DNA of 58,842 nt from a bacterium (GTDB lineage Bacteria; Patescibacteriota; Minisyncoccia; Phycocordibacterales; GWA1-40-21), in contig JBAWVR010000001.1 of the NCBI GenBank assembly GCA_037147155.1, forward strand, positions 1 to 58,842. The letters are read 5' to 3'. Below are positions 5,127 through 28,724 of the stretch, piece after piece; position 1 is the first letter of the stretch; every line of letters starts with the position of its first letter. A program made the position numbers and the translations under genes. Below the pieces are notes generated by a model. That model saw only the letters and a program-made list of their open reading frames with translations. It searched no databases and was not told the origin of the DNA.

Positions 5127-7076
5127 TTATGCGATATTTTGGTTTTTGCGGTCTTCTTGTTCACGACGATCGCGAGCGATAATCAAATAGAGCAAGAAGC
5201 CAAGTAGAATGATACCGACAATGAGAAGGAAGAGAATCAAACCACCAGTCCAACCGCTAAACAAAGCGGAAGCAGCCTGAGAGCTTGAAATATCTCCGAT
5301 AGTTACATTACCACAAACCTTGGTATTAACTTGATCTCCTGATTTAACAGTAAGAACAGCAACTTTGTTGCCATCGTTGTAATATGACTTGGCAATATAA
5401 TTTGTATCGCCAGTTAGACCATCAGAACCTTCCCAAGAATATGTATACTTACCTGTACCACCAAGAGCGTTGGACACCCAAACTACAGTATCGTTGGCAG
5501 CAGCAGCTCTAGTGTTTGGACTACAACTTACTACCAATTCAGTAGCCTTGGTCGTGGTCTTGGTTACGGTAACTACTGGAGGATAATCACCACCGGTAGT
5601 ATCAACAGTACTATTTGTTACAGTAATCGGACGAGTCGAGATAGATACAGTGTTACCACAAGTTCTAGTTATACTCTGACCATTTGATCCAACTGAAACA
5701 GAAGCGGTCTTCAAACCAGCATTCCAATATGTTTTGGATACAACGGCTGTATTACCAACTAGACTATCATCTCCGTTCCAATAATAAGTATAGGAACCAT
5801 TTCCACCAGAAGCCACAGCTGTCCAAGTTACTGTATTACCAGACAAACCTGAACCTATATTGGCAGTACAAGATACTGACAATGGGGAAACGTAATTGTA
5901 ACCACTGCTGTAATAATTGTTATTATTGTAGTTACTTCCATAGGAATATGGATCGAAAGAATAGGTATAAGGATAGGTGTAGTTGTTGTTATTATAATTA
6001 CTGTAATTGTTGTTGTAATTACTGTCATAAATACTAACACCATTATCACAGGTACGACTTACAGTTTGACCATTTGAGTAAACGGTCAAAGAAGCAGTTT
6101 TTAAACCAGTGTTCCAATAATTTTTAGTGATGGAAGATTGTGAACCCCACAAACCATCGGTACCACTCCAAGAATAAGTATAGGCACCATTACCACCAGA
6201 AACATTGGCTGACCAATAGATTGAGTCGCCATATCTAGCGGTCGTATTGTTTGGGTAACAACTTACAACAAGATTTGAATTATTATTGTTGTTATTATAA
6301 TCATTTACGCTAACATTTGTATCACAAGTAATAGTTCTAACTTGAGAACCAGATGTAACTGTAACATTAGCAGACTTAGTACCACTATAACTATAAGTTT
6401 TCGAAATTATACTTCCACTACCAGACAAGCTATCCGAACCGTTCCAGGAATATGAATAACTACCTGTACCACCAGAAACACTGGCGATCCAGCTAACAGA
6501 ACCACCTGTATTTACTGAGGTAGCATTTGCATAACAAGATCCAGAAATTGCTGTGGTTGTATCAATAGCAGAGTTAACTTGCACATGACTACCACAGACA
6601 ATAGTCTTTGTAAGACTTCCAGAGGTTACTGTTACTTGAGCAGTCTTAACACCAGTGGTGTTGTATATTTTAAAAACTGACTGGCTATTTCCATACAAAC
6701 TATCTGTACCTACCCAGGAATAAGAATAACTACCAGTACCACCATAAATGGAAGCGTACCAAGTAGCACTACCACCAACTGTCAAAGATCCTGCGTTGGT
6801 GTAACAAGTACCAGAAATTGGAGTAGTGGTCTGAGTAGCCGCTACAGGAGCTGGGTCATCATCACAATAGGCATGATCAATAGCACAACGAAAAGAATCG
6901 TCGGCATCAGACCAAAAGCTAGCAGAAGCTTTTTCAGTTGGAACAACCACCATAACGGTAGTCAAAACCAAAGTCAAAACCACAGCCGGCATCAGACTAT
7001 TTATTTTTTTGATAAAATTTTGCATATTTTTTTTACGATTTAAAAACCCTCGCGTTTGGGAGCGATTATTCGCCAT
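5127..7076 (-). CDS. surface protein with six PKD-like repeats, Asn/Tyr-rich linkers and a C-terminal TM anchor
   Basis: 649-aa ORF with a signal/TM N-terminus. The unit C..N....GG.V.W.A.V.GG.G.Y.YSW.G.D.L.G......K.Y...G.K.A.V.V.S......C (about 85 aa) recurs six times. NNNNN/YNNN linkers separate the repeats. Confidence 0.7.
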   Translation of the reverse strand: MANNRSQTRGFLNRKKNMQNFIKKINSLMPAVVLTLVLTTVMVVVPTEKASASFWSDADDSFRCAIDHAYCDDDPAPVAATQTTTPISGTCYTNAGSLTVGGSATWYASIYGGTGSYSYSWVGTDSLYGNSQSVFKIYNTTGVKTAQVTVTSGSLTKTIVCGSHVQVNSAIDTTTAISGSCYANATSVNTGGSVSWIASVSGGTGSYSYSWNGSDSLSGSGSIISKTYSYSGTKSANVTVTSGSQVRTITCDTNVSVNDYNNNNNNSNLVVSCYPNNTTARYGDSIYWSANVSGGNGAYTYSWSGTDGLWGSQSSITKNYWNTGLKTASLTVYSNGQTVSRTCDNGVSIYDSNYNNNYSNYNNNNYTYPYTYSFDPYSYGSNYNNNNYYSSGYNYVSPLSVSCTANIGSGLSGNTVTWTAVASGGNGSYTYYWNGDDSLVGNTAVVSKTYWNAGLKTASVSVGSNGQSITRTCGNTVSISTRPITVTNSTVDTTGGDYPPVVTVTKTTTKATELVVSCSPNTRAAAANDTVVWVSNALGGTGKYTYSWEGSDGLTGDTNYIAKSYYNDGNKVAVLTVKSGDQVNTKVCGNVTIGDISSSQAASALFSGWTGGLILFLLIVGIILLGFLLYLIIARDRREQEDRKNQNIA

Positions 7077-7310: not shown

Positions 7311-7985
7311 TTAAATATCCAATCTCGCGTATTTAGCATTACTCTGAATGAAGTTCTTTCTCGATGGTACATCAGTACCCATGAGCATGTCGAAGATTTT
7401 GTCAGCATCAGCAGCGTCTTCAATATTCACTTGTTTCAAAAGTCTCTTAGCTGGATCCATGGTTGTCTCCCACAATTCTTCAGAGTTCATTTCTCCAAGA
7501 CCTTTATAACGCTGAACATGAATTTTTTCTTTTCTCACTACCTTATCATCTTTCTTGCCTTTGGAAGTTTTTTCTTCTGCTCCGATAGTCAGCTGCTCTG
7601 GAACTTCAATCACTATCTCTTCCCCACTCTCCTCATCCATCGGAATATCATCACCAAACATTTTCTTCTTTTCTTCTTCGGTGTAGAAATACATAATCTC
7701 TTTACCACGTTTTACTTTGTATAGTGGTGGTTGAGCAATATAAATATATCCTCCTTCTACCAATGGTCTAAAGTAGCGATAGAATAAAGTCAGAAGCAAA
7801 GTACGAATGTGTGCACCGTCCACGTCGGCATCTGTTGCGATAATCACTTTGTAGTAACGCAATTTTTCCAAATCAAAACTATCACCAATACTAGTACCAA
7901 GTGCCACCACTAAGTTCTTGATTTGTTCAGAAGCCAACATCTTGTCCAAGCGAGCACGTTCAATGTTTAGAATCTTTCCACGCAA
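7311..7985 (-). CDS. gyrB: DNA gyrase subunit B, C-terminal part (Toprim/tail), out of frame with the N-terminal part
   Basis: 224-aa ORF beginning (L)RGKILNIERAR, the continuation of the conserved QAILPLRGKILN motif. Ends ...GLGEMN...RLDI. Confidence 0.85.
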   Translation of the reverse strand: MRGKILNIERARLDKMLASEQIKNLVVALGTSIGDSFDLEKLRYYKVIIATDADVDGAHIRTLLLTLFYRYFRPLVEGGYIYIAQPPLYKVKRGKEIMYFYTEEEKKKMFGDDIPMDEESGEEIVIEVPEQLTIGAEEKTSKGKKDDKVVRKEKIHVQRYKGLGEMNSEELWETTMDPAKRLLKQVNIEDAADADKIFDMLMGTDVPSRKNFIQSNAKYARLDI

Positions 7986-9400
7986 GGTAATATTGCCTGA
8001 GTGCGACGATCGCGACCCATCTTGGCTGTACCACCCGCAGAGTCTCCCTCCACAATGAACACTTCGGAATCAGAGGCATCTTTGGACTGACAGTCAGCGA
8101 GCTTGCCCGGCAGAGTCATACCTTCAAGCGCACCTTTACGCAAGACGGAGTCCTTCGCAGCTTTGGCAGCTTTGCGAGCGCGAAGTGCGAGATAGGCTTT
8201 GTTGATTATTCCACGAGCGTCATCCGGATTTTCTTCGAGGAACATCGCGAAGGCTTCACCAAAAATTGTGGCCACAGCTCCTTGAGCATCCATGGTTCCC
8301 AACTTGGATTTGGTCTGACCTTCAAATTGAATCTTGTCCGCACGCAGTTTTACTGAGACAACAGCGGTCAAACCTTCGAGTACATCTTCACCAGTCAGAG
8401 CTTCGTCACCGTCCTTGGCGAGATTATTATTCTTGGCATAGGTATTGAGAGTTCTCGTCAAAGCGGTCTTAAAACCAGTGATATGAGTACCGCCTTCTGG
8501 TGTGTGAATGTTGTTAGCAAAAGACATGACACGGGAAGAAATATCATCCACATACTGGAGAGAAATTTCTACATCCTCAATTCCTTCGGCTCCTTTCTGA
8601 ACATAAAAAATATTTTTCTGAACTGGCTTTTGGAACTGATTGTAAAAACGTACTAGGGACAAGAGACCTCCTTCAAAATAGAAAGACTGTGATGGATTTT
8701 CCAAACCAAGATCAGCTAAATAGAAACAATCTGTATCATCAATCTTATCTTTATATTCACGAGCATCGATAGCAGTAATACGTAAACCTTTAACCAAATA
8801 CGCCTGTTGGCGCATATGAGCTACAACGCGAGGCCAATCAAAATCAGTTCCCTCTTTAAAGATTTCCTTGTCAGGTTCAAAGATAGTAATAGTACCGTGA
8901 GCTTTGGAAGTACCAATCTTTTTGACGGCAGCTTTTTTCTTACCCTGAGAATATTCTTGATAGTAAATACCACCATCCTTGTGCACAACAACCTTCATAT
9001 AAATAGACAAAGCGTTCACCACAGAGGCACCCACACCGTGAAGACCACCAGAAACAGCATATCCATCATCACTGAATTTACCACCAGCGTGGAGCACAGT
9101 CATAATGGTTTCCAACGCTGAAACTTTGGTTTGTTTATGAATATCTACAGGAATACCACGACCGTTGTCAGTAATACGTACACGATTGTTTGGCAAAAGC
9201 ACCACCTCAATATGATTGGCATGACCGTTCATCGCCTCGTCGCGAGAGTTGTCGAAAATTTCTGTGATCAAATGTTGTAGACCATCAGGACCAGTAGTAC
9301 CAATATACATGCCGGGACGGCGACGGACAGGTTCAAGACCTTCCAAAACGGTGATTTGATCAGCACCGTAACTCTTACCTTTCTTCTCTTCCTTGGCCAT
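7967..9400 (-). CDS. gyrB: DNA gyrase subunit B, N-terminal part (ATPase, transducer, start of Toprim)
   Basis: 477-aa ORF with GLHHLV-type, GGLHGVG and EGDSAGG motifs. It terminates 5 codons after ...RRTQAILP because of a 1-nt frame change. Confidence 0.85.
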   Translation of the reverse strand: MAKEEKKGKSYGADQITVLEGLEPVRRRPGMYIGTTGPDGLQHLITEIFDNSRDEAMNGHANHIEVVLLPNNRVRITDNGRGIPVDIHKQTKVSALETIMTVLHAGGKFSDDGYAVSGGLHGVGASVVNALSIYMKVVVHKDGGIYYQEYSQGKKKAAVKKIGTSKAHGTITIFEPDKEIFKEGTDFDWPRVVAHMRQQAYLVKGLRITAIDAREYKDKIDDTDCFYLADLGLENPSQSFYFEGGLLSLVRFYNQFQKPVQKNIFYVQKGAEGIEDVEISLQYVDDISSRVMSFANNIHTPEGGTHITGFKTALTRTLNTYAKNNNLAKDGDEALTGEDVLEGLTAVVSVKLRADKIQFEGQTKSKLGTMDAQGAVATIFGEAFAMFLEENPDDARGIINKAYLALRARKAAKAAKDSVLRKGALEGMTLPGKLADCQSKDASDSEVFIVEGDSAGGTAKMGRDRRTQAILPCVERF

Positions 9401-9519: not shown

Positions 9520-10104
9520 TTATTTTTGTAATCTCTCAGTGAAAATCGCAAATTTTCTCCAAGCAGCACGGAATTTATCCATCGGTACAAAAAACTGTCC
9601 TTTTTCGGTTATATTATCTTCCATTGGATCATTCACATAGAAACCGGTTATTTTATCATTTTCTTCCTCGAAACCGATCACCAACACTAAATGTAGCTTA
9701 TCCGGGATGCTGAATTTTTTCCACACAGACACGATCACAGGTTCTCCGTGTATGATAGAGCTTTGAATTTTACCCAAAGCAAAATCAATCAGGTCTTTTT
9801 CGACTGGATTAATTTTGTCTATTTTATTTACTATATCCTTCTCTACTGCTCGGAATTCCTGACGATACGAGCTAAGACCATGGTTGCGCAGCAGCATCAC
9901 GACAGCGTCATGAGACCAGCCATATTCCGTAGTAAAACTATTTTTGATTAATAATCCTTCTTCAAGTAAATCATTAACAGAAAATATTTTATCAAGTGAA
10001 AAATCCAAAACCATCTTAACACAAGCCAAAGCACAGACACGCTCCTGCCAATCTGTTTTTATTTCAGGAGAGAATTGGGAATAAAATGGTACTTCTAATT
10101 TCAT
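9520..10104 (-). CDS. papain-like cysteine peptidase, C39-like domain protein
   Basis: 194-aa ORF. VPFYSQ ... CALACVKM (catalytic Cys context) and a later HLVLVIGF (His), as in peptidase C39-like domains. Confidence 0.5.
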   Translation of the reverse strand: MKLEVPFYSQFSPEIKTDWQERVCALACVKMVLDFSLDKIFSVNDLLEEGLLIKNSFTTEYGWSHDAVVMLLRNHGLSSYRQEFRAVEKDIVNKIDKINPVEKDLIDFALGKIQSSIIHGEPVIVSVWKKFSIPDKLHLVLVIGFEEENDKITGFYVNDPMEDNITEKGQFFVPMDKFRAAWRKFAIFTERLQK

Positions 10105-10108
10105 ATTT

Positions 10109-12487
10109 TTATCTTACCTGCCAACCTTTAGCAGTTACTTCGGCATTAATAGCAGACATGATAACGTCAATCTCCTCTCCGGAAAGTGTCCTCTCATATG
10201 ATTGAAAAACTAATCGATAGGCGTAAGAGGTTTTACTGGTACCGTCTGGAAATTTCTTAACGAAGACATCAAACAAATTTGAACGTACCAACAAGTCACC
10301 TGACTTGGCTTTAATAATTTCTAGGAGTGCCGCATCTGTTACCCCCTCAGGCACAAAGACCGCAATGTCTCGAGAGACAAAAGGATACTGAGAGATTTTA
10401 TGGAAGCGTGTGGTGGCTGGAGCAATCATCATGTCTGGCACAAAATTTTCTGGCTCAGGCATTTTTTCCACAATCTGATTAAAATCAAATTCCACCACTC
10501 CATCAGCGCGAGTGATCGGATTTAAAACGAAACCTAGTTTTTCTACCACTGTTGCCAAGGCAGCATCCAAAACATCTTTTTCTTTTTTCAAGCCCTTAAC
10601 GCCGATAGGATTACCCACACCAAGACAGAGACGAATTGACTCACCATTAGCATTAAATACATGACCTATTTCAAATACTTTTATTTGAGACATACCGATA
10701 AGATCAGTATAGCGGGCATTGAATTCCAGCGATTTTGTAACAGAAGTTGCCAAATCTGTACGCAAAAAAGGTAGCTCCTTATTGAGTGGGTTGGCCACTT
10801 CAATTGCTCCTTGAGCCGAGAAGGCATAGGTATAAATTTCTGAAAAACCAAGCATGCTCAAAACTTTTCTGAGTTCGGTTGCGTAGTAATAAGACTTATC
10901 AGGCATCGCCCGTTTATCAGCCACCTTAACTTCCTTACCACCAATTTTCTCATAACCATTAACCATGGCAATATCTTCAATCAAATCTTCTTTGATACGT
11001 AGATCCAAACGGTCGACTGGGATAGTCACCACCCAACGTTCAGTGTTGTCTGTTACACGACCGCAACCAATAATATTAGTGAACTGCTCGCTGGTAGAAA
11101 GTTTTTCAATTACCACTCCATTCTTGTAACGAGTAGCCTGAACCACTTCATCATTACCGAGGTATAGTCCGACATGATCAATACCGCCTGATACTTTAGT
11201 GCCCGGCATAAATTCAATACTCTCTGTGTGTATCTTACCTTCTCCGCTATTAGCAAAAATCAAATCGCCAGCTTTTAAATCTTTAACTTCAACTCTATCA
11301 GTCGCCACGTACTGATCTATAGACATTCGTGGCAACAAAACGCCACCCTGAGCATAGAGGTAAGCCACGAGACCAGAACAATCAAATTCTTTTGGCGCAT
11401 TATAAGTCACACTAGCACCCACTCGATAAGTAGCACCAACCAGAGTCGGAGCAACCATCAACACTTCGTCAATAGGCTTAACAACTTTATATTCAAAGCC
11501 AAGATCAGAAAAAATATTTTCAATCTCTGGAGTAGTAAGACTAAGACCGAGCAAACGATTAATCTCGCCCAAGCTAACACCTACTTTATACTGATTGGCA
11601 CGTCGTGGATAGTTATCCACAACTTCACCTACCTTTGTGTCTGATGTGCCAGCGATTTCCACAATAATTGAAGTTAACAAATCCATTGCTTCACCAGCCA
11701 ATTCTGGTGAATAGTCATTTTCGTAGCGCTTGGAAGCGTCGGTCTGAATCTTGATATTAGCTGAAGTTCGGCGAATAAGTGTCGGATTAAAGTTGGCTGA
11801 TTCCAATACCAAATCAACAGTATTTTCATCAATTTCCGCCTCAGTACCTCCTTTAATACCAGCAATAGCTAAAGGACGATCCTCGTTGGTAATCAAAAGG
11901 ATGGATGGATCTAGTTCGACAAATTTCTTATCAAGAGTGGTAATAGATGTCTCGGCTTTGGCGCGCTTTACTTCAATCAAAATTTTGTCGTCACGTTTGA
12001 CTAGTTTACTGGCATCAAAAGCATGCATCGGCTGTCCGATTTCTAGCATAACAAAGTTAGTGGCATCAACAACATTACTGATTGAGCGCTGACCAAAAGC
12101 CTCAAGATAGTTTTTCAACCATTCTGGTGATGGTCCAATTTTAATTTTCTCTATTACACGTCCAGCATAACGACGACAATCTTTTTCATCTTCAATCTCA
12201 ATCGCTAACTTATTATTAGTTTCAGAAATAACATAAGACTTTAGCTCACGAGAATAAGTGGCTGGTTTTTGCTTAATTACAGCTCCAACCAATCTTGCTA
12301 CGCCACGGTGACAGAGAGCACTGTGGGCCAAGTTCGGTGTAACTTTCACATCCAAGATTTCATCATCACCAACAGGATTCACTGATTCCACTTCCAAAAA
12401 GCTCATCATCAATTTATTGGCGACGACTTTTGACTCTGGCAATTTACCAGCAAAGAAATTATTTAACCATTTATATGAAATATTCAT
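10109..12487 (-). CDS. pheT: phenylalanyl-tRNA synthetase beta subunit with an inserted NlpC/P60-like domain
   Basis: The track ORF starts at 12520, but MNISYKWLNNF (ATG 12487) is the canonical PheT N-terminus and avoids overlap with pheS. B3/4, B5 and the C-terminal domains are recognisable, and the B2 tRNA-binding OB-fold appears absent. An extra ~150 aa at residues ~347-495 of the track ORF carries DCSGLV...HVGLYLG. Confidence 0.9.
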   Translation of the reverse strand: MNISYKWLNNFFAGKLPESKVVANKLMMSFLEVESVNPVGDDEILDVKVTPNLAHSALCHRGVARLVGAVIKQKPATYSRELKSYVISETNNKLAIEIEDEKDCRRYAGRVIEKIKIGPSPEWLKNYLEAFGQRSISNVVDATNFVMLEIGQPMHAFDASKLVKRDDKILIEVKRAKAETSITTLDKKFVELDPSILLITNEDRPLAIAGIKGGTEAEIDENTVDLVLESANFNPTLIRRTSANIKIQTDASKRYENDYSPELAGEAMDLLTSIIVEIAGTSDTKVGEVVDNYPRRANQYKVGVSLGEINRLLGLSLTTPEIENIFSDLGFEYKVVKPIDEVLMVAPTLVGATYRVGASVTYNAPKEFDCSGLVAYLYAQGGVLLPRMSIDQYVATDRVEVKDLKAGDLIFANSGEGKIHTESIEFMPGTKVSGGIDHVGLYLGNDEVVQATRYKNGVVIEKLSTSEQFTNIIGCGRVTDNTERWVVTIPVDRLDLRIKEDLIEDIAMVNGYEKIGGKEVKVADKRAMPDKSYYYATELRKVLSMLGFSEIYTYAFSAQGAIEVANPLNKELPFLRTDLATSVTKSLEFNARYTDLIGMSQIKVFEIGHVFNANGESIRLCLGVGNPIGVKGLKKEKDVLDAALATVVEKLGFVLNPITRADGVVEFDFNQIVEKMPEPENFVPDMMIAPATTRFHKISQYPFVSRDIAVFVPEGVTDAALLEIIKAKSGDLLVRSNLFDVFVKKFPDGTSKTSYAYRLVFQSYERTLSGEEIDVIMSAINAEVTAKGWQVR

Positions 12488-12491
12488 GAGT

Positions 12492-13268
12492 TTATATTTT
12501 AGTTTCTGAATCAGTTTCAAATTGGTTGACTAGACGAAGGTCACCAGAGTACAAGAGACGAATATCATCAATGCCATATTTATACATCGCCAATCTTTCA
12601 ATTGAACCACCAAAGGCAAAACCAGTAAATTCTTTTGGATTAATACCGCCGTTCTGCAAAACTTTTGGATGGATCATTCCCGCCCCCATCACCTCTACCC
12701 AGCCACCCCCCTTACAGACAGGACATCCTACCTCGCCGTGATTACATTTAAAACACGAGATATCAATTTCTGTGCCTGGCTCAACGAAAGGAAAATAGCT
12801 CGGACGAAAGCGCACTTCAACATCCTTACCAAAAAACTTATCGAAAAAATAATTGAGCACAGACTTCAAATCTCCCATAGTGACATTCTTGTCCACCATC
12901 ATACCTTCGAATTGATAGAACTGAGTTTCGTGAGTAGCATCAGTGGCTTCTTGACGAAAAACCTTACCAGGACAGACCATCTTAAAAGGTGGCTTGTTGG
13001 TCTCCATGAAATGCGCTTGAATGGCACTAGTTTGAGTTCGGAGTAACATCTTGTGTTCTCCTTTTTCATCGGTTTCGGTACGCTCCAACCAAAAAGTATC
13101 CTGCATATCTCGAGCTGGATGATCCTTGGGCACATTCAAAACATCAAAGTTATAATACTCTGTCTCCATCTCTGGTCCATCCACCTTAACAAAGCCCAAT
13201 TCGCCAAAAATAGCGTTGACGCGATAGATGACGTCAGTGACTGGGTGAATTGTGCCTTTTTCTTTCAT
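12492..13268 (-). CDS. pheS: phenylalanyl-tRNA synthetase alpha subunit, short form
   Basis: 258-aa ORF covering the class II catalytic core (HPARDMQDTF, FRPSYFPFVEPG, GAGMIHP). The N-terminal coiled coil is missing. Confidence 0.9.
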   Translation of the reverse strand: MKEKGTIHPVTDVIYRVNAIFGELGFVKVDGPEMETEYYNFDVLNVPKDHPARDMQDTFWLERTETDEKGEHKMLLRTQTSAIQAHFMETNKPPFKMVCPGKVFRQEATDATHETQFYQFEGMMVDKNVTMGDLKSVLNYFFDKFFGKDVEVRFRPSYFPFVEPGTEIDISCFKCNHGEVGCPVCKGGGWVEVMGAGMIHPKVLQNGGINPKEFTGFAFGGSIERLAMYKYGIDDIRLLYSGDLRLVNQFETDSETKI

Positions 13269-18549: not shown

Positions 18550-21500
18550 CTAGATAGGTAAGGCGTCTGACGACGTGCTGGTTTCTTCAATAATATTTTT
18601 TGTCGTTGTTGCTGTATCATCAGCAGTCATCTCGGTGGTACTGGCGTTGGTTTTCTCTTGTTCAGTCAAAGACTCAGAAGTTGGTTCTAAAGGGATCTTT
18701 GTGATTAACTCTTTAGTATTGTAATCTGCATACCACGGGTCAAATTCCACTCCATTAGAGACTAAGTCTCCTTTCCCTTCTGAGTTTAGGACCTCGTGTT
18801 TTGGTCCAGACGGATCACCCCACCAATTACTTTTAAAGTTCATGGGATATTTAAGTTCGTCTTGACCTTGTTCATCTTGTAACCAATCAAGATCATCAGT
18901 GAGACCTGGACTCAAACCTTTTGACACCGCTAAAGTGTTGTTCCAAAAGAGACTGTCAGCGATAGTAGTGGTTGACTCTAAATTGTAGTATGAAAATACT
19001 CCAATTTTATTGTCGTGAATATTTAGTCTTTGACCAAGAACTTCACCGCCGCGCGTTGAGGTTACAGCCGAGTAATTAATATTTTGAAATTCTGAATCGT
19101 AAATTTCCGAATTGCCATTATCACTAACAAAAACCGCATTATTTCCGTTTAAAAATTTGGTATTTCTTATGTCTGCATGCGAATAGTCATAAATATCTAC
19201 TGCCGAGCCAAAGTCGGAACTGAAACCATCAAAAAAAGAATTATCGATCGAAAGCCTTGAGTCACCATAGACACTTATACAAGAAAACAAACAAAAATTA
19301 TTTTTGACTTCAAGACCGTCAATCTTTGCCTCGCTGTTTTTATATACGCTCAAGATTGACTCCAAACTATTTAATTCACTATTAATATGAATATTCTCAA
19401 AATCGACTGAACTATTATTTTCAAAATGTGCCAATCCCCCATTTAAATTTATTCCTGTTAAATTAGAAATCTTCGCATTTGAATTACTAAAATTTATGAG
19501 GTTACTTTGAAAATTACCACTATCTGAATACTCAATATTATTAAATGTCAGGTCTTTAACACCATCTCCCAAGATCCCTTTCTTAGTGTTTTGGATTTTT
19601 AAATTATTAAAACTAGAACCAGAAGCACTACCGTATAAATTTATACCCTTAAACAAGACTCCTTCTGTCCAAGAAGTGATTACGGCTGGATTACCTTCAT
19701 TGCCCCGGATATTGGTTTTACCAAATAAATACGCACTCGTTCCTGATCGAAGCTTAATAACTGTACCTGGTCCTGCTTTTAGTGAACCATTTTCTGCCAC
19801 ATATAAATCGGATTGGGTCATGTAGGTTAAATTATCCTTCAATATCACTTCGCCAGTTATATCTTGCCCTTTATTTATTAAATAACTATAACCATTTCTC
19901 TGTCCCGGTGTACCATAAATATCACCATCTTCTCTATCAAGCCCATTTTTAATATCATAATCATAATATGAGTAACCAGACCAATCTGAAGATAAGTCAC
20001 TCGTGACAATTTCGGAATCATAACGTTCGAGTGATTCTCCAACTTGTCCCAAATTGCACCAATTTTCACAATAAGGCACATAATCAATCACCTTTTCTAA
20101 GCCGTCTTTTGAATAAACTAAATACAAATCTTCTCCAGACATGCTTAGCCAACCATTCCACTCTTGCCAGTCATGGCTAGTCAAATCTTTGATCGGTTCA
20201 GTTGATGAAGCACTCTTCTTTTCCAATACGAAATAATCGTTTGGTTTAATTGTTCCCTGAATTGGTATAACTAAAGTTGAGCTAGAGTTTACAACTTTAA
20301 AGTTGTCTAGGACAATAGTGTAATCAGTATTATTTTTAAGTTCTATCCACTGATCATCTATTGAGGCGATGGTTCCACTCCAGTTTATTTCATTAATAGC
20401 TATAGGTAGTGTTTTGTGTAAAAGTTTTCTGCTTACTGGCAGAGAACTAGTGCCAGTAAAGGCAACAGAAGAAACAGAGAAGTTATACTCTTGATTGTCA
20501 GCTAAAGAAATAATTGTACTAGTGGCGGTTGTAGTGGAAACAACTCCGTTCAGATTGAGAGCAAAATAGGCAATATCAGTGGAAGTAGACTGCCAATAAA
20601 TTGTGGTTGTAGTTGATAACAGAAGACAACCATCAATGGCAATACTCTGAGAACACGGATCGTCAATCAAAGAAATATCTGGTTTAATTATTTCTGAATC
20701 TTGAGTAGTGGTACTCGAAGTATCAGCTCCAATATTAATATATATGTTTGTTCCACTCGAACCAATATAAATATTTGGTTCTGCACCTGACACAAAATTT
20801 TTGTTTTGTTCCACAAATGAACCCACACCATTTCTTTGTAAAGTTTCGGTTTGATTGCTTACCGCCTTTTTGAAGGCTTCGATAAAAGCTAGCACTTCGC
20901 TCTGAGAAAAAGTTACCTCTTGGTTTTCTGTGTTCGAAATATTTTTTTGAGCCGTTTTGTCAACAGCTAATTCAACCACAGGGTTTATTTGCGTATTATT
21001 TTCCATTTTTGAACCGCTATAAAAAACACTAGCAAGTGCTCTATCGGCTACACTTGAGATTGATGATTCAACCGAAGCTGTAGTGTAATACATTGCCGGC
21101 ACCACTAGATATACATTGTGACCCAACCAAGTTCCAGCTAGTTTAGCATTGTCATAAATTGATTCAGTATTAGTAATGATATTTGAGACTGCATCCTGTG
21201 TCCCATATTTAATATCAGCAAATAGATGACCAAATAAATTTGAATCTTTATATGTCTCAGCTCTTTTGTCTTGTTCCAGTTTTTGAGCTAATTCTGCTTG
21301 TTTTTGCTTTTCTAAAAAAATAGCCCTCGCTTGTTCAGCTTGGGTTAAAAACAAATCAATAACATTTACACCGGCCAAGACGGCTTGTTTGGCGAGACGA
21401 TCAAAATAGTCGGAGAGTACGGCCGGGTTTTTTGATTCGGGGTCGAGCAAATAGTAATTTAATACTGAATTACTTCCATTAAGCTCTTTTTTTAATAGTA

Positions 21501-22212
21501 ATTTATGGTCATCATTAAAAAAGTCATCTCTTCCATACAAAAATTCTTTATCTTCATATGTAATCTCTGGTTTAGAAAATACTTTTTTATCTAATGTATG
21601 ATTACTAAAGTAATTAGCATTGGAGTAGATGGCCAGGCTTGTTAGATAATCAGAAAAATTATCAAACTTCCAAGTATTAAAAAAGTTTAAATTCGAAAAT
21701 TTATTTATTACCTCAGCTGAAGAATAATTATTTTCCACCCAGTTTTCAAATACCGAACCACCAAACATGGGCAAGTGGGTATCATTGCGAGTATGATCAG
21801 GCACCGTCATATCTTCCAAGAGATGCAGCAGGTGTCCAAGGCTAAGCATAGCTAAATCCTTCTTACCTTCTGAATAGTATTCAATGGCTTTGGGCCAGGA
21901 ATAAAGATTGTCTGCATAACTACCGTTAGACCAAGCGATGGATGAAGAATAATGATTCCAGCCGATATTATGAATGGGATCATAAAAGTGATTGGACATT
22001 CTCGGCACCTTGTCTTCATCAATCGAACCTTGAATAATTTGTTTTTTATCAGTCTCGGTCAATTTGACTGAGAAATTCTTATTATATATTTCCGCTGTTA
22101 CGCCGGCCAAACCAGGGTGCGTAACCGTGTCTGAATAAGCCCAAAGTATTTTGGGTAAACACAGTAAAGCAAAAATTAGTATTAGATTTTTAATTGGAGA
22201 TCTTCCAAACAT
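18550..22212 (-). CDS. large secreted multidomain protein (Zn phospholipase C-like N-domain, lamin-tail-like domain, parallel beta-helix repeats)
   Basis: 1220-aa ORF with a signal peptide. WAYSDTVTHPGL and HLLHLLEDMTVPDHTRND resemble the Zn-dependent PLC fold. INEINWSG...DQWIELKN resembles a lamin-tail domain. The C-terminal N/G/S-rich repeats look like beta-helix. Confidence 0.6.
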   Translation of the reverse strand: MFGRSPIKNLILIFALLCLPKILWAYSDTVTHPGLAGVTAEIYNKNFSVKLTETDKKQIIQGSIDEDKVPRMSNHFYDPIHNIGWNHYSSSIAWSNGSYADNLYSWPKAIEYYSEGKKDLAMLSLGHLLHLLEDMTVPDHTRNDTHLPMFGGSVFENWVENNYSSAEVINKFSNLNFFNTWKFDNFSDYLTSLAIYSNANYFSNHTLDKKVFSKPEITYEDKEFLYGRDDFFNDDHKLLLKKELNGSNSVLNYYLLDPESKNPAVLSDYFDRLAKQAVLAGVNVIDLFLTQAEQARAIFLEKQKQAELAQKLEQDKRAETYKDSNLFGHLFADIKYGTQDAVSNIITNTESIYDNAKLAGTWLGHNVYLVVPAMYYTTASVESSISSVADRALASVFYSGSKMENNTQINPVVELAVDKTAQKNISNTENQEVTFSQSEVLAFIEAFKKAVSNQTETLQRNGVGSFVEQNKNFVSGAEPNIYIGSSGTNIYINIGADTSSTTTQDSEIIKPDISLIDDPCSQSIAIDGCLLLSTTTTIYWQSTSTDIAYFALNLNGVVSTTTATSTIISLADNQEYNFSVSSVAFTGTSSLPVSRKLLHKTLPIAINEINWSGTIASIDDQWIELKNNTDYTIVLDNFKVVNSSSTLVIPIQGTIKPNDYFVLEKKSASSTEPIKDLTSHDWQEWNGWLSMSGEDLYLVYSKDGLEKVIDYVPYCENWCNLGQVGESLERYDSEIVTSDLSSDWSGYSYYDYDIKNGLDREDGDIYGTPGQRNGYSYLINKGQDITGEVILKDNLTYMTQSDLYVAENGSLKAGPGTVIKLRSGTSAYLFGKTNIRGNEGNPAVITSWTEGVLFKGINLYGSASGSSFNNLKIQNTKKGILGDGVKDLTFNNIEYSDSGNFQSNLINFSNSNAKISNLTGINLNGGLAHFENNSSVDFENIHINSELNSLESILSVYKNSEAKIDGLEVKNNFCLFSCISVYGDSRLSIDNSFFDGFSSDFGSAVDIYDYSHADIRNTKFLNGNNAVFVSDNGNSEIYDSEFQNINYSAVTSTRGGEVLGQRLNIHDNKIGVFSYYNLESTTTIADSLFWNNTLAVSKGLSPGLTDDLDWLQDEQGQDELKYPMNFKSNWWGDPSGPKHEVLNSEGKGDLVSNGVEFDPWYADYNTKELITKIPLEPTSESLTEQEKTNASTTEMTADDTATTTKNIIEETSTSSDALPI

Positions 22213-22789: not shown

Positions 22790-24361
22790 TTAATTTGAGT
22801 AAAATAAACCAACAAAACCTTTCCAGGCTCGGCCGGGCAACGAGACAACACCAGACCAAAATCCTTTCTTTTTAAAGTCGCCTGCGTTTTTTCCTTGTGT
22901 AGTTGTGGACACTAAAGTCGGTTTTCCTTCTCTAGACAAAACTGGAGAATAAACAACTGACGCTATATTGTAATTATCATTCTTTACTAAACCATTTTTA
23001 TTAATAATCTCACCAGCTTCACTTTCTAATTGACTACGATTGGCCTCCACCAAACGGCTAATGTCTTCTATGGTTGGAGTGGAATTATTATTAATTGTAA
23101 CACTATTAGTTATTTTAACATCTGGACTTACTGCCAAAATATTCTTGCGCTCAATTGATGATCTAATCTTATTCGATGGATCAGACAGCATCAAAGCACT
23201 TCCATTGTTAATTTTTATTTCCTCGACTGGTAAGACCAGATTTTGTTTTGGCCCAATAATTGTATCTATTGGAAAAGTAAATTTATTTGCTTTATCATCA
23301 GTTATAGACCAGTCTCCAAGATTCACTTCGTATTGACCTTTATTACTCAAAGTTACTGACTCCTCGCTGTTTTCCAAAATTACCACCTCTGGTTTCAATA
23401 TTTTAACAGTGATTCTAGTTACGGCTTTTTGACCAGCGATCTCTGCATTTAAAATCAGATTGTAATCTCCAGGAAATTTATATGTATGATTCACTTTTTC
23501 TCCCTCGAAAGATGTTCCGTCACCAAAGGTCCAAATATATTTTCTATATCCAGACAAATTTTGATTATTAATCTTAGCTTCAAAAGATATTGGCGTGCCC
23601 GTGTAGGATAAACGATCTCGTCCAGCCGAAACAGCGAGGACATTGGCAGTGTTAAAATCACTCAAATCTTCTTCACTGGAGTGTACGGAAATGTATCTAG
23701 TTACGGTTCTAGTAATAATCGTTGGGGTGGTGGTAGAGGTCTGATTTGTGGTCGTGCTGGTCGCTGTACTGGTAGCGACACCAGTGTCCGTTGTGGTTCC
23801 AGTACCGTTTGTAGTATTGCTTGCCGCTGTGCCAATTATTATATTTTGCATCGCTTGCCAAGATACAGTCTGCCCAGCCAAAGTTGTAGCATTGATTTTG
23901 GCGTTCAAAGCAAAGGTGCCTGTGGATAAGTCCTTGTAATAAAAATTCCTACCAGTCCAACCCTTATTAACTGTTAGAGAAGTAACAGGCTCCCAGGTCG
24001 TATTACTAGATGAGAACTCACCAGTTGGTGATATTGATGTTAATTCTAACTTGGTGCCAGAAGTATTAAAAGAGATTGGATTACCAGAGGCATCCTGAGC
24101 CTGAACATTAATAATTTTAGAAATTTCTCCCGGTGCAACTGTCTGTGCTTCGGTAGTAAATGCAATCTGTGTAATAGCTGAGGTGTCAGAAGTGGTCACG
24201 GCTAGGACTAAGCCTGGAGAAACCAACAAAAAAGCGCCGGTTACAGCCGCCGCTTTAATGAGTAAATCGGTTTTGTTTGCAGAAATTGAGCGCAAAAAAT
24301 CCACTGCTTTTAACACTGGTTTAAACCCTGAAAAATAAGGAGAATTCATAGTAAAGTACAA
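22790..24361 (-). CDS. secreted protein with PKD and lamin-tail-like domains
   Basis: 523-aa ORF with a Thr-rich linker. WTFGDGTSFEGEKVNHTYKFPGDYNLIL is PKD-like, and SVTLSNKGQYEVNLGDWSITDD is lamin-tail-like. Confidence 0.6.
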   Translation of the reverse strand: MYFTMNSPYFSGFKPVLKAVDFLRSISANKTDLLIKAAAVTGAFLLVSPGLVLAVTTSDTSAITQIAFTTEAQTVAPGEISKIINVQAQDASGNPISFNTSGTKLELTSISPTGEFSSSNTTWEPVTSLTVNKGWTGRNFYYKDLSTGTFALNAKINATTLAGQTVSWQAMQNIIIGTAASNTTNGTGTTTDTGVATSTATSTTTNQTSTTTPTIITRTVTRYISVHSSEEDLSDFNTANVLAVSAGRDRLSYTGTPISFEAKINNQNLSGYRKYIWTFGDGTSFEGEKVNHTYKFPGDYNLILNAEIAGQKAVTRITVKILKPEVVILENSEESVTLSNKGQYEVNLGDWSITDDKANKFTFPIDTIIGPKQNLVLPVEEIKINNGSALMLSDPSNKIRSSIERKNILAVSPDVKITNSVTINNNSTPTIEDISRLVEANRSQLESEAGEIINKNGLVKNDNYNIASVVYSPVLSREGKPTLVSTTTQGKNAGDFKKKGFWSGVVSLPGRAWKGFVGLFYSN

Positions 24362-24723: not shown

Positions 24724-27700
24724 TTATTGCTGGAAGGAGATAGCTTCAGCGTTGATAGGCATAGAGATTGAAGGATCAACTGATGAAACATCAGATGTAC
24801 CATCATTCCATGTCAAAGCGCTCAAACCAATCTGGTAAGTACGAACTGAACCTGAAGTCAAATCAAGATCAGTTGCTGAACCCAAGTTTGATTTAATAAC
24901 CAAACCACGAGTTGTACTCTTAGTAACAGTAAAGTTAGGTGACAAGGTAATAGAAGTAGCAGTTGTACCAACTAGGGTACCAGTACCAATACTTGTATTT
25001 AGATCGTCAGCAGCATATACAGTTACAGCAACAGATGAGCTTGCGCTAGCACCTGCCTTAATCATAGAACCAGTGTTACGAACGCTGATTGTTTTGATAG
25101 AAGCATCGTTACCAACGTCAGCTGAGAAGTTGAAAGCAGCGGTCTTTAGAGCGTCGCCTACAACCATCGAAGCGTTAGAAGCTGGGAAGTTAGCTACAGC
25201 ACGCAAGTTGGTGCGGTAGACAGTGAAGGTAGCGTTTGAACGAACAAGGTCTGTATCGTTAGCAGCAGCCATTGAAGCAGCACCCTGAGCAGAAACACCT
25301 GACAAACCAACAGTGATGGTAACAGCAGAAACTGCGCCTCCATCAATATTGTTAATATCAGCAACTACATCCATAGTAACATAACCATCCTTCGGAACAA
25401 CCAATTCGTTGCCTGAAAGCTGGAATGTTGCTGTCTGAACTCCTGAAGCTACAGCGCCAAATGAAGGCTTCTGAGCGATAACAGTCTGACCATTCATCAA
25501 ACGGATATTAGTCAATTCAGAACCGGTTGAAGAAGTAGTAGTAGCAGTCAAACCAACAGTGATAACCTTGATAGGCTCATTGTTAGAAGCGGTCAATTTG
25601 AATGAACCAACTTTAACATTGCTGAGACCCATAGATACGAACTGTGAGTTAACTGGAGTTGAAGCAATAGAAGTAGTCAAAGTACCGTTTCCAGCAACAG
25701 TAACAAGCTGTCCACCAACGTTAGTTGAAGGAGTCAAGTTAGTGCTAGTGTCAGCACCCTGAGCAGAAACACCAGTCAATGATACTACGCGAGTAGCAGA
25801 AATTGTCTGGCCTGAAATAACATCAGCATATACATCAACTACAACTGAAGCACCCTTTGCAATAGCAACCAAAGGTGAAGCAGTGAAGGTGTAAGCAGTA
25901 GCATTTGCTAGAACAGTCTGAGCAGTACCAATAGTTTGGTTACCGATCATAAGTCTCATGTTCTGGTAAACAGAAGAGATTCCAGCACCAGTTGTAACTG
26001 TCAAGCTGATAAGGTTTGCACCTTCAGCAGGTCCAGCAACAACAGAGAAGGAACCAACTTTAACGTTAGCAGTACCAGTTACAGTTGTAACAGCACCCTG
26101 AGCGTTGTTCAAAGAAGCAACCAATGGTGAAGAAGCCAAACTCAATGGGTTGCCAACATAACTGTTGAAGTTAATAGCAACCAATGAAGTATAACCTTGT
26201 GCAACACCAGAAGTGATCTGAGCAGTCAAAGCAGTACCAGCACCCTTAACATCTGCTTTCACAGAGAAGGTACGAGTAGTGTTTGCAGGAATAACATAAT
26301 TTAGGTTTTCAACAACCACTGACTGGGAAGTATTTGTATCTCCAGCTGAGCGGATGATGTTACCGATTTGTACTCCCTGATCATCAACCAATTTCAAGTT
26401 ATCCCAAACAGCAGTTTCAACAGCTGATGAGTAACTCAACTGGTAGGTGATACCTGACAAACGAACAGCTTCTCCGTTAGCCTTGAAGTCAAAGCTAGCC
26501 AAGGTCTGATTGTTTGCACCAGAAGCAATGTAATTTGAAGGTGAAGTGGTGTTTTTGTTGATTACCAAGGTTCCGTAGTTGATTCCAACTACTGAAGCCT
26601 GAACTGGGAATCCACCAGTAGCAGAAATTGCAGCACCAACATTGTATGTCATGTCAGTTGAAACAATGTCATAGCTTCTCTGTACAGTGAAGCGCATGTT
26701 GCGGTTTACACCACCAACTACGTCAACATAAAGAGTAAGGTTAACAGTGTTTCCAGCGGTGATCTGAAGTGGGTTGTTTGAAAGATCAAATACAACAGTA
26801 CCATCAGAATTCAAGTTCGGAACAGTGTTTCCGATCTGTACACCACCGTTCATCAAACGAATGTTTGACAAATCAGAAGCAGCATTGATAGTACCGGTCT
26901 CAGTCAATTTGATTGACTTGATAGACACAGCGCTATTGCTTGACTGCATTGAGAACTGACCAGCCAAGAAGTTGGTCTGACCTGCGTTAACAGTACCGCC
27001 AGTAGCGACATTGGTAACAAGCAAGGTAGCCAAAGCTGGGTTAGCAACAGTACCTGCAGTTGAAGCATAACCTGCAATTGGGAAAGCACCACCAACTACT
27101 GCATTAGATGTAATGTCAGCAGCGGCAGCGATACCAAATGAGAAGCTATGAGTTGAGGTATTGCTGTTTAGGTCAGCAGCGATAGTAATAGTCTTGGTAG
27201 TTCCAGCCTTAACGGTGAACAAACCATTAGCCATTGAAAACATAGCCTTACCGTTTGCCAAACCAATGTTTGTAGCAAGAACAGTAGAACCATCCATCAA
27301 GTAGACATTATTAATATCGTTATCACTTGAGAAACCTCCACGAGTAACTTTCAAAGCAGTAACTACCAAGTCGGTAGCACCAGCGGTGAAGTTAATCTTT
27401 GTGAAAGGAACTTGTGAAGCACCTTCTGGGATAGTAATAGGGGTTGGGGTATCCATAGCAGTAGATACGGTTGCGCTTCCAGTAACTGGAATAACAACAG
27501 CACCTGTACCAGGGATAGTAGTAGTAACAGAACCACCCATTTTGTTCAAAGCAGCCATGGTCATAGGACCGACGTAGCCGGTAGCCTTAATACCATTGTC
27601 TGATTGGAACTTAACTACAGCAGCCTTGGTGATAGCACCAAAGTAACCAGTAGCAGGGGTGATACCCAAAGCCTGCTGCAAAGCAGTAACTTGAGCACCC

Positions 27701-27942
27701 TTAGCACCTACTCCCATTTCAGATGTAAATTTATAACCTGAAGTAGCAGTGGTGGTGACGGTAGTACCGCCAACAGCAGCACGAGCAGCAGCAGCTTTTT
27801 CAGGAGCAATAACGCCAGTAGCGATCAAAAGATCGATCAACTGAGACATATTCATGCTCTGAGCTGAAACAGTCGCAACCATAGTGAAAGCCATTGTCAA
27901 ACCGACAACGACAGCCACGATTTTTGTAAACTTTTTATTCAT
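24724..27942 (-). CDS. very large secreted cell-surface (S-layer-like) protein with an N-terminal peptidoglycan-binding domain
   Basis: The track ORF starts at 27969. MNKKFTKIVAVVVGLTMAFTMVATVSAQS (ATG 27942) is a clean signal peptide. A PG_binding_1-like segment (GAQVTALQQALG...VVKFQSDNGIKATGYVGPMT) is followed by about 7 T/A/V/G/S-rich Ig-like repeats sharing ...N(I/V)RLM(N/D)G... Confidence 0.65.
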   Translation of the reverse strand: MNKKFTKIVAVVVGLTMAFTMVATVSAQSMNMSQLIDLLIATGVIAPEKAAAARAAVGGTTVTTTATSGYKFTSEMGVGAKGAQVTALQQALGITPATGYFGAITKAAVVKFQSDNGIKATGYVGPMTMAALNKMGGSVTTTIPGTGAVVIPVTGSATVSTAMDTPTPITIPEGASQVPFTKINFTAGATDLVVTALKVTRGGFSSDNDINNVYLMDGSTVLATNIGLANGKAMFSMANGLFTVKAGTTKTITIAADLNSNTSTHSFSFGIAAAADITSNAVVGGAFPIAGYASTAGTVANPALATLLVTNVATGGTVNAGQTNFLAGQFSMQSSNSAVSIKSIKLTETGTINAASDLSNIRLMNGGVQIGNTVPNLNSDGTVVFDLSNNPLQITAGNTVNLTLYVDVVGGVNRNMRFTVQRSYDIVSTDMTYNVGAAISATGGFPVQASVVGINYGTLVINKNTTSPSNYIASGANNQTLASFDFKANGEAVRLSGITYQLSYSSAVETAVWDNLKLVDDQGVQIGNIIRSAGDTNTSQSVVVENLNYVIPANTTRTFSVKADVKGAGTALTAQITSGVAQGYTSLVAINFNSYVGNPLSLASSPLVASLNNAQGAVTTVTGTANVKVGSFSVVAGPAEGANLISLTVTTGAGISSVYQNMRLMIGNQTIGTAQTVLANATAYTFTASPLVAIAKGASVVVDVYADVISGQTISATRVVSLTGVSAQGADTSTNLTPSTNVGGQLVTVAGNGTLTTSIASTPVNSQFVSMGLSNVKVGSFKLTASNNEPIKVITVGLTATTTSSTGSELTNIRLMNGQTVIAQKPSFGAVASGVQTATFQLSGNELVVPKDGYVTMDVVADINNIDGGAVSAVTITVGLSGVSAQGAASMAAANDTDLVRSNATFTVYRTNLRAVANFPASNASMVVGDALKTAAFNFSADVGNDASIKTISVRNTGSMIKAGASASSSVAVTVYAADDLNTSIGTGTLVGTTATSITLSPNFTVTKSTTRGLVIKSNLGSATDLDLTSGSVRTYQIGLSALTWNDGTSDVSSVDPSISMPINAEAISFQQ

Positions 27943-28724
27943 AATTGTGATTAATGATAATAAGCACACTCATTCCCTTTTAACTTAAATTAAACTAATA
28001 AAATAGGTTCGGGAAAAAGATAGCTCTTAAACTTAAACAATCTGTGTTGTACTCGAAGTACGTAGAGAATTGATTTCGACGAAAAATCAAAGCTCACACT
28101 GATCCGCGTCAACTAAAGGACATCTGATAAAGGACAGTAATATAAATACCCTGCCCGGAACTTTAGTCGATACTCGCAACGGCTGACGAAAATCTTTTAC
28201 CTGTTTTAGAGTAAAAAATTCTCCGGAAGGTCTTTCTCTTTTTCAAGAAAAAAACGTCTCCACCGACGCTGTAATCACTTGCCTTGACAATCTCATATTT
28301 TTATTGGCTGTCAAAGTTTTTCTCTTTCAGCAAGCCACGGCAGTGACCATCACAAAATGTGATAAGCCCAGGTGACGCTAAGTCCCACAGGCTGATCCAA
28401 AATTGGATAAGCCACGGTGGTGAACCAAAAAGAAAAACCGACGACCAATAAATTCGACACAAGTTCATCAAGGAAGTTGACGAAATAAAGGATATGCAAT
28501 CGTAACAACCATATAGGGATAAGGAAAAGGAAACCCAATAGAATTGGGATTTTTTGAATTTTGTCTCTCCTCTCGGAGAAACATTGTTATCAAGAAGAAT
28601 TCTTCACGAAATCTTCTTAAGCAGTATTAAGTTGTCAAAGATGCAATCGTTAAACCGGGGTCTGTGGTGCAGAAGAAGTAGTGCTGTGACACGTATAAAC
28701 GTGGTCTATCACTACCTTGGGATA

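Follow-up and report, generated by a model that had tools for sequence, protein, structure and literature searches.

A predicted NlpC/P60 cysteine peptidase nested in the B5 domain of the phenylalanyl-tRNA synthetase beta subunit across a class of Patescibacteria

Several aminoacyl-tRNA synthetases (aaRSs) carry editing domains inserted in their cores, such as CP1 of the leucyl, isoleucyl, and valyl enzymes (LeuRS, IleRS, and ValRS) and INS of the prolyl enzyme (ProRS). Catalytic domains unrelated to tRNA are, to our knowledge, rare in bacterial aaRSs. Here, we analyzed a stretch of 58,842 nucleotides (nt) from a member of the Minisyncoccia (GWA1-40-21; assembly GCA_037147155.1, contig JBAWVR010000001.1, positions 1 to 58,842; referred to below as the window), in which pheT, coding for the beta subunit of phenylalanyl-tRNA synthetase (PheRS), contains a predicted NlpC/P60 (C40) peptidase within its B5 domain. 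In canonical bacterial PheRS, an N-terminal coiled coil of the alpha subunit PheS helps to bind tRNAPhe, and the editing residues of the Thermus thermophilus enzyme are Thr249, Asn250, His261, Gly315, Glu323, and Glu334 (PMC3275996). The NlpC/P60 enzyme YkfC of Bacillus recognizes gamma-D-Glu via Tyr226, Trp228, Asp237, Ser239, and Ser257, plus a conserved Arg255, and has a specific gate for the free N-terminal L-Ala that consists of Asp256 and the SH3b residue Tyr118 (PMC2954226). As a precedent from a bacterium with a reduced genome, a cytosolic NlpC/P60 enzyme of Chlamydia recycles murein peptides (PMC9928106).

The pheT open reading frame (ORF; 10109..12520, minus strand) was unbroken and comprised 803 codons from a TTG, and all residue numbers refer to this ORF. 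Met12, at nt 12487, is the start used in the gene call of an identical database protein (P0001; 792 amino acids [aa]). The protein passed the equivalog test for bacterial PheT (NCBIfam TIGR00472 pheT_bact, 414.4 bits; cut-off, 402.65) and matched the Pfam domains B3_4, NLPC_P60, B5, tRNA_synthFbeta (residues 541 to 628), and FDX-ACB. An initial annotation, made from the DNA alone, had placed an NlpC/P60 domain at nt 11036 to 11482, inside B5, and had regarded this architecture as foreign to canonical PheT. Both statements held. Taken alone, residues 347 to 495, which correspond to these nucleotides, matched Pfam NLPC_P60 (PF00877) with an E value of 4.6e-19 (68.8 bits; cut-off, 23), and in the whole protein the match covered residues 364 to 477 (E 4.7e-17; 62 to 69 bits over both searches). 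The Pfam B5 match fell into two stretches flanking the insert, the second of which covered residues 484 to 523 (profile positions 28 to 67). In a phmmer comparison with Staphylococcus haemolyticus PheT (2rhs_B), query residues 52 to 344 aligned to chain residues 160 to 444 and query residues 494 to 628 to chain residues 449 to 591, so that ∼149 residues stand where the 2rhs_B structure has a 4-residue loop. The insert interrupts the winged-helix domain B5 at its beta2-beta3 hairpin. P0076 and P0097, two close relatives that lack the insert, read "...F(T/A)(F/Y)(E/K)(K/R)", then ∼5 residues, and then "(V/I)P.ERLDLR" in this region. The P, R, and D of the B5 motif P..R.D, which follows the insert, were invariant across the family.

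An AlphaFold2 (AF2) model of residues 310 to 530, computed with 23 aligned sequences, had a predicted local distance difference test score (pLDDT) of 92.9 and a predicted template modeling score (pTM) of 0.88. According to DSSP, the N-terminal B5 half in this model consists of strand 3-6, helix 8-15, helix 21-30, and strand 34-38. The modeled chain leaves B5 at beta2-beta3, forms an alpha+beta peptidase domain, and then completes B5 with its last strand and helix. Foldseek searches against the PDB returned NlpC/P60 hydrolases, the best of which was 7cfl, the catalytic domain of the Clostridioides difficile autolysin Acd24020 (TMt 0.90; root mean square deviation, 2.0 Å; 30% identity). Relative to these enzymes, the insert is extended between GDLxF and DH (residues ∼424 to 447) by a conserved stretch of ∼14 residues, which was modeled as a beta-hairpin. 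In NCBIfam, the insert matched NlpC/P60-superfamily hydrolase families only; its sequence matches in the PDB reached down to 1e-11, and the remaining matches were weak ones to related papain-like amidase families. No editing or trans-editing family (B3/B4, YbaK/INS, AlaX, or DTD) was among its Pfam, NCBIfam, PDB-sequence, or Foldseek matches. Profile searches and the model thus describe the same object, a predicted complete papain-fold NlpC/P60 domain nested in B5 of PheT.

This architecture was not confined to the window. As proposed in the initial annotation, PheT orthologs of Patescibacteria were surveyed: 118 of the best 120 PheT homologs (43 to 88% identity) had PF00877 inside PheT, and at least 372 genomes encoded a relative when each GTDB species was represented by a single genome, with the best 80 all spanning the full module. 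These 80 included Campbell-, Nomura-, Yonath-, Taylor-, Zambryski-, and Terrybacteria, metagenome-assembled genomes labeled "Paceibacterota/Minisyncoccia," and the complete genome CP011215.1. An exhaustive HMMER search with the insert, grouped at 50% identity, yielded 64 clusters at E<1e-30 and 335 clusters at E<1e-10, the majority being PheT proteins of ∼780 to 800 aa matched at residues ∼330 to 490, and the insertion point was identical in >200 protein clusters. Mean pairwise identity was 0.554 for the insert and 0.535 for the host protein, 17% and 16% of the respective columns were at least 95% conserved, and the divergence of insert and host was correlated (r = 0.69). This equal conservation, together with the correlation, points to a single old insertion that was vertically inherited across Paceibacteria/Parcubacteria and functionally constrained. 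Judged by these alignments, purifying selection appears to be as strong on the insert as on the synthetase. That the insert is an artefact, i.e., an assembly chimera, a miscalled two-gene fusion, or a recent mobile or intein-like element, has nothing to recommend it beyond the unusual architecture and is practically negligible as an explanation: the frame is unbroken, the same insertion point recurs in independent assemblies (>200 clusters and 372 species genomes, CP011215.1 included), the G+C content at third codon positions (GC3) is host-like (0.333 in the insert versus 0.336 in the remaining gene), and Pfam and NCBIfam searches of the window PheT found no intein or transposase signatures.

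The active site was conserved to a similar extent. Cys381 and His449, the putative catalytic pair, were kept in all 118 insert-bearing homologs; the initial annotation had already pointed out the strings around both, and every string it quoted was found in the ORF. In the same homologs, the third triad position (461) was occupied by His in 109 sequences, by Tyr in 5, and by Gln in 3, the oxyanion residue Tyr365 was present in 117, and Asp380, Arg398, Asp419, and Asp448 were invariant or nearly so. By these residues, the insert is catalytically equipped and apparently active. YkfC residues were mapped onto the insert via the 7cfl alignment and motifs. Four of the 5 gamma-D-Glu residues were kept (Tyr226 as Y365, Asp237 as D380, Ser239 as S382, and Ser257 as S400), as was Arg255 (R398); position 400 was Ser in 88 and Ala in 22 of the homologs. 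A gamma-D-glutamyl amide therefore appears to be the most plausible scissile bond, although the enzyme would not be of the YkfC type, for reasons given below.

The host protein is, as far as its sequence tells, a working-looking PheRS beta subunit. Its canonical B3/B4 editing pocket seems intact: the equivalents of Escherichia coli N254, H265, G318, and E334 were invariant in the 118 insert-bearing homologs and 2 insert-free relatives, the T354 equivalent was kept in all sequences except one, and the A356 equivalent was Ala or Ser. Replacement of a lost editing site by the insert was thus rejected. Other parts of the enzyme are reduced. The initial annotation had correctly noted the lack of the B2 OB-fold: the window PheT had no Pfam match to tRNA_bind (PF01588), and E. 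coli PheT residues ∼40 to 150 had no counterpart in the alignment, in which B6/B7 was also shortened. PheS lacked the N-terminal coiled coil; its tRNA-synt_2d match began at profile position 12, and its match to TIGR00468 (307.8 bits) covered positions 67 to 323 of 324. The PheRS of the window thus appears stripped of several tRNA-contacting or accessory parts, namely, B2, the PheS coiled coil, and part of B6/B7. Two homologs of ∼901 to 903 aa (P0080 and P0088) contained both B2 and the NlpC/P60 insert in the same protein, from which it follows that the insertion was independent of B2 loss; it is probably the older of the two events.

Four nucleotides separate the pheS stop from the pheT ATG, and another 4 nt lie between the pheT stop and the start of a gene for a C39-like papain-fold cysteine peptidase (Table 1). 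The C39-like protein scored 51.7 bits against Peptidase_C39_2 (threshold, 24) and had no signal peptide. Across its homologs, Cys24 was nearly invariant and His138 invariant. Its AF2 model (pLDDT 92.2) matched 3erv (Bacillus anthracis), C39 peptidase domains, and the phytochelatin-synthase-like Alr0975 in Foldseek, with TM scores of 0.55 to 0.65. A substrate could not be read from this structure search, which gave only generic papain-fold matches (3erv, the ComA/PCAT1 C39 domains, Alr0975, and PeiR). In 67 of 80 GTDB loci, gyrB followed pheT in the same orientation. Of these 67 insert-bearing loci, 49 had a C39 homolog between the two genes, and in 40 loci this homolog started no more than 250 nt past the pheT stop. 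Two loci with insert-free pheT (L086 and L087), which represent a single lineage, had the order pheS-pheT-gyrB and no C39 gene; the locus of insert-free P0097 is uninformative on this gene, as its contig stops 413 nt past pheT. The C39-like protein is likely a functional partner of the insert.

TABLE 1 Positions in the window of the pheS-pheT-C39 genes and of the domains and residues considered here
Feature	Position (nt)	Strand	Remarks
pheS, PheRS alpha subunit	12492..13268	minus	258 aa; catalytic core only; Pfam tRNA-synt_2d E 1e-96
pheT, PheRS beta subunit	10109..12487	minus	792 aa from Met12; B1, B3/B4, B5 with nested NlpC/P60, B6/B7, B8
B3/B4 editing domain	11648..12178	minus	residues 115-291; Pfam B3_4 E 1.6e-57
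B5 N-terminal half	11483..11623	minus	residues 300-346; strand, helix, helix, strand; matches 2rhs_B up to residue 444
Nested NlpC/P60 (C40) cysteine peptidase domain (predicted)	11042..11482	minus	residues 347-493, 147 residues
Tyr365, oxyanion	11426-11428	minus	codon read directly
Cys381, catalytic	11378-11380	minus	codon read directly
His449, catalytic	11174-11176	minus	codon read directly
Gln461, third triad residue	11138-11140	minus	codon read directly
B5 C-terminal half	10946..11041	minus	residues 494-525; holds P..R.D motif; matches 2rhs_B from residue 449
B8 / FDX-ACB anticodon-binding domain	10127..10393	minus	residues 710-798; Pfam FDX-ACB E 8.5e-19
C39-like papain-fold cysteine peptidase	9520..10104	minus	194 aa; Pfam Peptidase_C39_2 (PF13529) E 1.9e-13
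C39-like predicted triad	Cys24 10033-10035; His138 9691-9693; Asp159 9628-9630	minus	predicted

The HMMER search with the insert also returned complete proteins of 199 to 241 aa that consisted of the N-terminal B5 half, NlpC/P60, and a relaxed C-terminal B5 half. In one of these (P0285), residues 1 to 199 of 221 aligned to the window module along the peptidase and the two flanking B5 halves (37% identity, E 2e-48). A neighbor-joining tree together with sequence motifs divided the free and fused proteins into two groups, A and B. Group A (FDCS/FECS motif, ∼25 clusters) was found directly after a gene for a single-chain PheRS of 380 to 382 aa in all 4 loci examined (L091 to L094), as a free gene of 219 to 241 aa that overlapped or abutted the stop of the PheRS gene. 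In 3 of the 4 loci a C39_2 gene came next, and then gyrB. The group A module thus occupies the old pheT slot, and B1, the B3/B4 editing domain, and B6/B7 of the beta subunit are gone from these loci. Group B (FSCS motif) comprised 21 clusters of free proteins and 16 in which a C39_2 domain is joined to the C terminus (391 to 399 aa), and it branched beside PheT-embedded inserts of the FSCS type. Its neighborhood, which is conserved and lies away from the PheRS locus, contained ScpA, ScpB, Peptidase_S11, an MraY-like Glycos_transf_4, CAP, the module itself, VanW (some loci), DUF218, and LigT; M23 and MurG genes lay near the module in one locus, and VanW/PG_binding were among the neighbors. Both free and C39-fused forms kept the catalytic triad, and the free forms had no signal peptide. 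Taken together, the peptidase is retained where the locus dispenses with PheRS beta, always with the split B5, and the module is linked to the C39-like enzyme by adjacency in three architectures as well as by gene fusion. A 516-aa protein with B3_4 and NlpC/P60 (P0297) was rejected as an evolutionary intermediate, since it represents a frameshifted pheT split into two gene calls.

Some further features of these loci were recorded. The relocated B5-NlpC/P60(-C39) gene always followed a CAP/PR-1 (PF00188) gene in L081 to L084, L088, and L089, and the CAP/PR-1 stop abutted the module gene in L088 and L089. The single-chain PheRS genes (L091:8862-10004, L092:108-1256, L093:3853-5001, and L094:3851-4999) code for tRNA-synt_2d plus FDX-ACB and take the pheS/pheT slot in some Paceibacteria. 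Their products scored higher against human mitochondrial PheRS than against bacterial PheS (213 versus 128 bits), and their best NCBIfam matches, "PheS-related mystery ligase SrmL" and pheS_mito, were both under the cut-off. Origin by fusion in situ is unlikely, given only 29% identity to the window PheS and the closer similarity to mitochondrial PheRS. A full-text literature search found no description of a single-chain PheRS from bacteria. The occurrence of a monomeric PheRS of the mitochondrial type in bacteria may merit a study of its own.

With regard to function, the initial annotation had offered editing, hydrolysis, or moonlighting. Our comparisons disfavor the first and favor an independent hydrolytic, and in this sense moonlighting, role. 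We consider it somewhat better than an even bet that the split B5 with NlpC/P60 is an autonomous module whose peptidase probably cleaves gamma-D-Glu or murein-type peptides and for which PheT serves as a carrier; within this proposal, we are more confident of the module than of its substrate. The insert must reside in the cytoplasm, because it is part of PheRS and because the free forms have no signal peptide. The module would act as a cytosolic cysteine amidase, with PheT as its carrier and scaffold, and would work together with the C39-like cysteine peptidase encoded directly downstream. Its most likely substrates would be gamma-D-glutamyl (murein-type) peptides or precursors in the cytoplasm, for instance, in salvage or turnover of cell wall peptides. 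It would resemble cytosolic YkfC-type enzymes minus their free-N-terminus gate and would be neither a substitute for nor an addition to tRNA editing. As the model has a pTM of 0.88 and B5 always travels with the peptidase, B5 may play the accessory role that SH3b plays elsewhere. The cell wall genes around group B modules agree with a murein-peptide substrate, which is circumstantial evidence.

Several observations weigh against this proposal. Some concern the substrate: the Trp228 equivalent (position 367) is variable (V/L/Y/F/S; V in the window), the equivalent of YkfC Asp256 is absent (position 399 is I/M/V), a Pfam search of the window PheT found no SH3b domain and hence no SH3b tyrosine, and in a subgroup the equivalents of Asp237 and Arg255 are changed to Ser (FDCS to FSCS and PR.S to MPS.S, respectively). 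The double Ser change suggests an altered and, across the family, nonuniform specificity. Furthermore, at position 461 the window protein carries Gln, a minority residue there, in place of His, and 18 of the 67 insert-bearing loci have no C39 gene between pheT and gyrB; both the link to the C39-like enzyme and the peptidase activity with its substrate are predictions. Finally, translational coupling to the PheRS gene persists for the free group A module, and every free form keeps the B5 halves, so that a continuing physical tie to PheRS is possible. As a separate observation, the changes to FSCSS and MPS were correlated and occurred in P0225, P0297, P0306, and group B (e.g., P0267, P0276, and P0285), i.e., in embedded as well as free or fused forms.

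These last two points, the retained B5 halves and the coupling of the group A module to PheRS, keep alternatives alive that assign the insert a role in the synthetase itself. One is an extra editing or acyl-transfer site, a thiol hydrolase acting on aminoacyl-tRNA(Phe) or Phe-AMP, which might hydrolyze mischarged or D-aminoacyl esters or capture a thioester and then transfer it to another acceptor. A Cys-His hydrolase able to cleave esters is indeed tethered to an aaRS here, in a lineage from which two appendages that bind tRNA, B2 and the coiled coil of alpha, have been lost, and the free group A module remains in an overlapping operon with PheRS, always with its B5 halves. Nevertheless, we regard such a site as unlikely. 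An editing role is disfavored because the B3/B4 residues are invariant, which leaves nothing to replace, and because the module survives free beside a single-chain PheRS without beta subunit. Moreover, the only resemblance of the insert is to NlpC/P60 enzymes of the peptidoglycan type, most of whose D-Glu-binding residues it keeps, group B forms lie outside the PheRS locus, among cell wall genes and fused to a second peptidase, and P0080 and P0088 carry B2 and the insert together. For the same two reasons, we keep in mind, at a similarly low level of expectation, the broader notion that the peptidase is mechanistically tied to the synthetase, either by aminoacyl-tRNA-dependent thiol capture or cleavage for transfer into cell wall or other peptides or by murein-peptide tuning of tRNAPhe charging.

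Regulatory coupling, in which the peptidase would sense or process wall-derived peptides and modulate PheRS and so link wall turnover to translation, seems slightly less probable still. The rigid B5-peptidase unit predicted by AF2 (pTM 0.88), the persistence of the nesting over a class-level radiation, and the coevolution of insert and host (r = 0.69) would fit such coupling, but the free and relocated forms show that the module functions without PheRS beta. Lower again, and improbable in our view, ranks a noncatalytic tRNA-, nucleic acid-, or partner-binding module that compensates for the loss of B2 and the alpha coiled coil, comparable to the inactive RipD. It would suit a lineage without B2 and the PheS N-terminal coiled coil, B5 being a helix-turn-helix "DNA-binding-like" domain (PMC3275996), and the minority Gln of the window protein. 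However, the Cys, His, oxyanion Tyr, and Asp/Arg network is invariant or nearly so in 118 homologs down to 43% identity, which is unexpected for a pseudoenzyme, the free and C39-fused forms keep the triad, and the insert coexists with B2 in P0080 and P0088.

The remaining genes in the window are ordinary Paceibacteria housekeeping and surface genes (ThrRS, GyrB, L25, FtsK, RecA, EF-P, MetRS, and proteins with PKD/LTD repeats). gyrB (7311-9400, minus strand) is present as two overlapping ORFs of 477 and 224 aa; this split is a frameshift at ∼7967-7985, inside the conserved motif "AILPLRGKILN," and GyrB of relatives is intact (683 to 691 aa). The frameshift could be a sequencing or assembly error or mark a pseudogene. 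Very large predicted surface proteins are encoded at 5127-7076, 18550-22212, 22790-24361, and 24724-27969, all on the minus strand. They include a 649-aa N/S/Y/T-rich protein with ∼5 PKD-like repeats ("SGGTGSYSYSW.G.D") and a C-terminal membrane anchor, a 1,220-aa LTD-domain protein, a 523-aa protein with PKD and LTD, and a 1,081-aa protein with PG_binding_1.

Both parts of the fusion belong to known families, and automated annotation already lists both, under names such as "phenylalanine--tRNA ligase beta subunit-related protein" and "C40 family peptidase." New are the nesting, its conservation throughout the clade, the partner gene, and the escape of a B5-plus-peptidase family from an aaRS; a full-text literature search found no description of the PheT/NlpC/P60 architecture. 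The downstream C39-like gene, the missing PheS coiled coil, and the clade-wide distribution were absent from the initial annotation. Within PheRS, an enzyme essential for translation, a class of Patescibacteria keeps a cysteine peptidase of the cell wall type that is apparently active. This arrangement has been dissected by nature, since some lineages with a single-chain PheRS keep only B5 and the peptidase and others fuse this piece to a second peptidase, which makes it a clear case of an aaRS domain giving rise to a new protein family. Together, the module and the C39-like enzyme are candidates for a cytosolic system of two enzymes that processes peptides, in organisms whose salvage of nutrients is poorly understood. 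If the peptidase were tied to the synthetase through murein-peptide tuning, it would couple wall turnover directly to translation in ultrasmall bacteria. For annotation, caution is advised, as insert-bearing PheT proteins are labeled "beta subunit-related protein" or "C40 family peptidase."

Compared with canonical PheT (E. coli, 3PCO; T. thermophilus, 1PYS/2IY5; and S. haemolyticus, 2RHS), the window protein shares B1, B3/B4 with its catalytic-site residues, B5, the catalytic-like module B6/B7, the anticodon-binding domain B8, and the pheS-pheT operon. It differs by the 147-residue peptidase in the B5 hairpin, the lack of B2, and the shortened B6/B7, and its PheS differs from that of canonical PheRS in having no N-terminal coiled coil. 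In fold, the insert is similar to P60-type D,L-endopeptidases (Acd24020, 7CFL; Acd33800, 9UBF; CwlT-like, 4HPE; and E. coli MepS/Spr), with TM scores of 0.88 to 0.90 and ∼30% identity, and has in common with them the Cys-His-His/Gln triad, the oxyanion Tyr, and the DCS and PR.S..Q motifs. In contrast to these enzymes, it comes with neither a signal peptide nor a wall-binding domain such as SH3b or LysM, lies within a cytosolic enzyme, and shows an extra beta-hairpin of ∼14 residues and a nonconserved Trp in the Y.WGG motif. With YkfC of Bacillus and Chlamydia trachomatis (PMC2954226 and PMC9928106) it shares the cytoplasmic location predicted for this NlpC/P60 domain, most gamma-D-Glu residues, and, in the case of Chlamydia, a host with a reduced genome; it lacks Asp256 and the SH3b residue Tyr118, which require a free N-terminal L-Ala, and has B5 in place of SH3b. 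Like CP1 and INS, finally, the insert is a predicted hydrolytic domain nested in a synthetase polypeptide. Unlike these, it has no homology to editing families and is located in a noncatalytic accessory domain rather than beside the synthetic site, and its module also exists free and fused to another peptidase.

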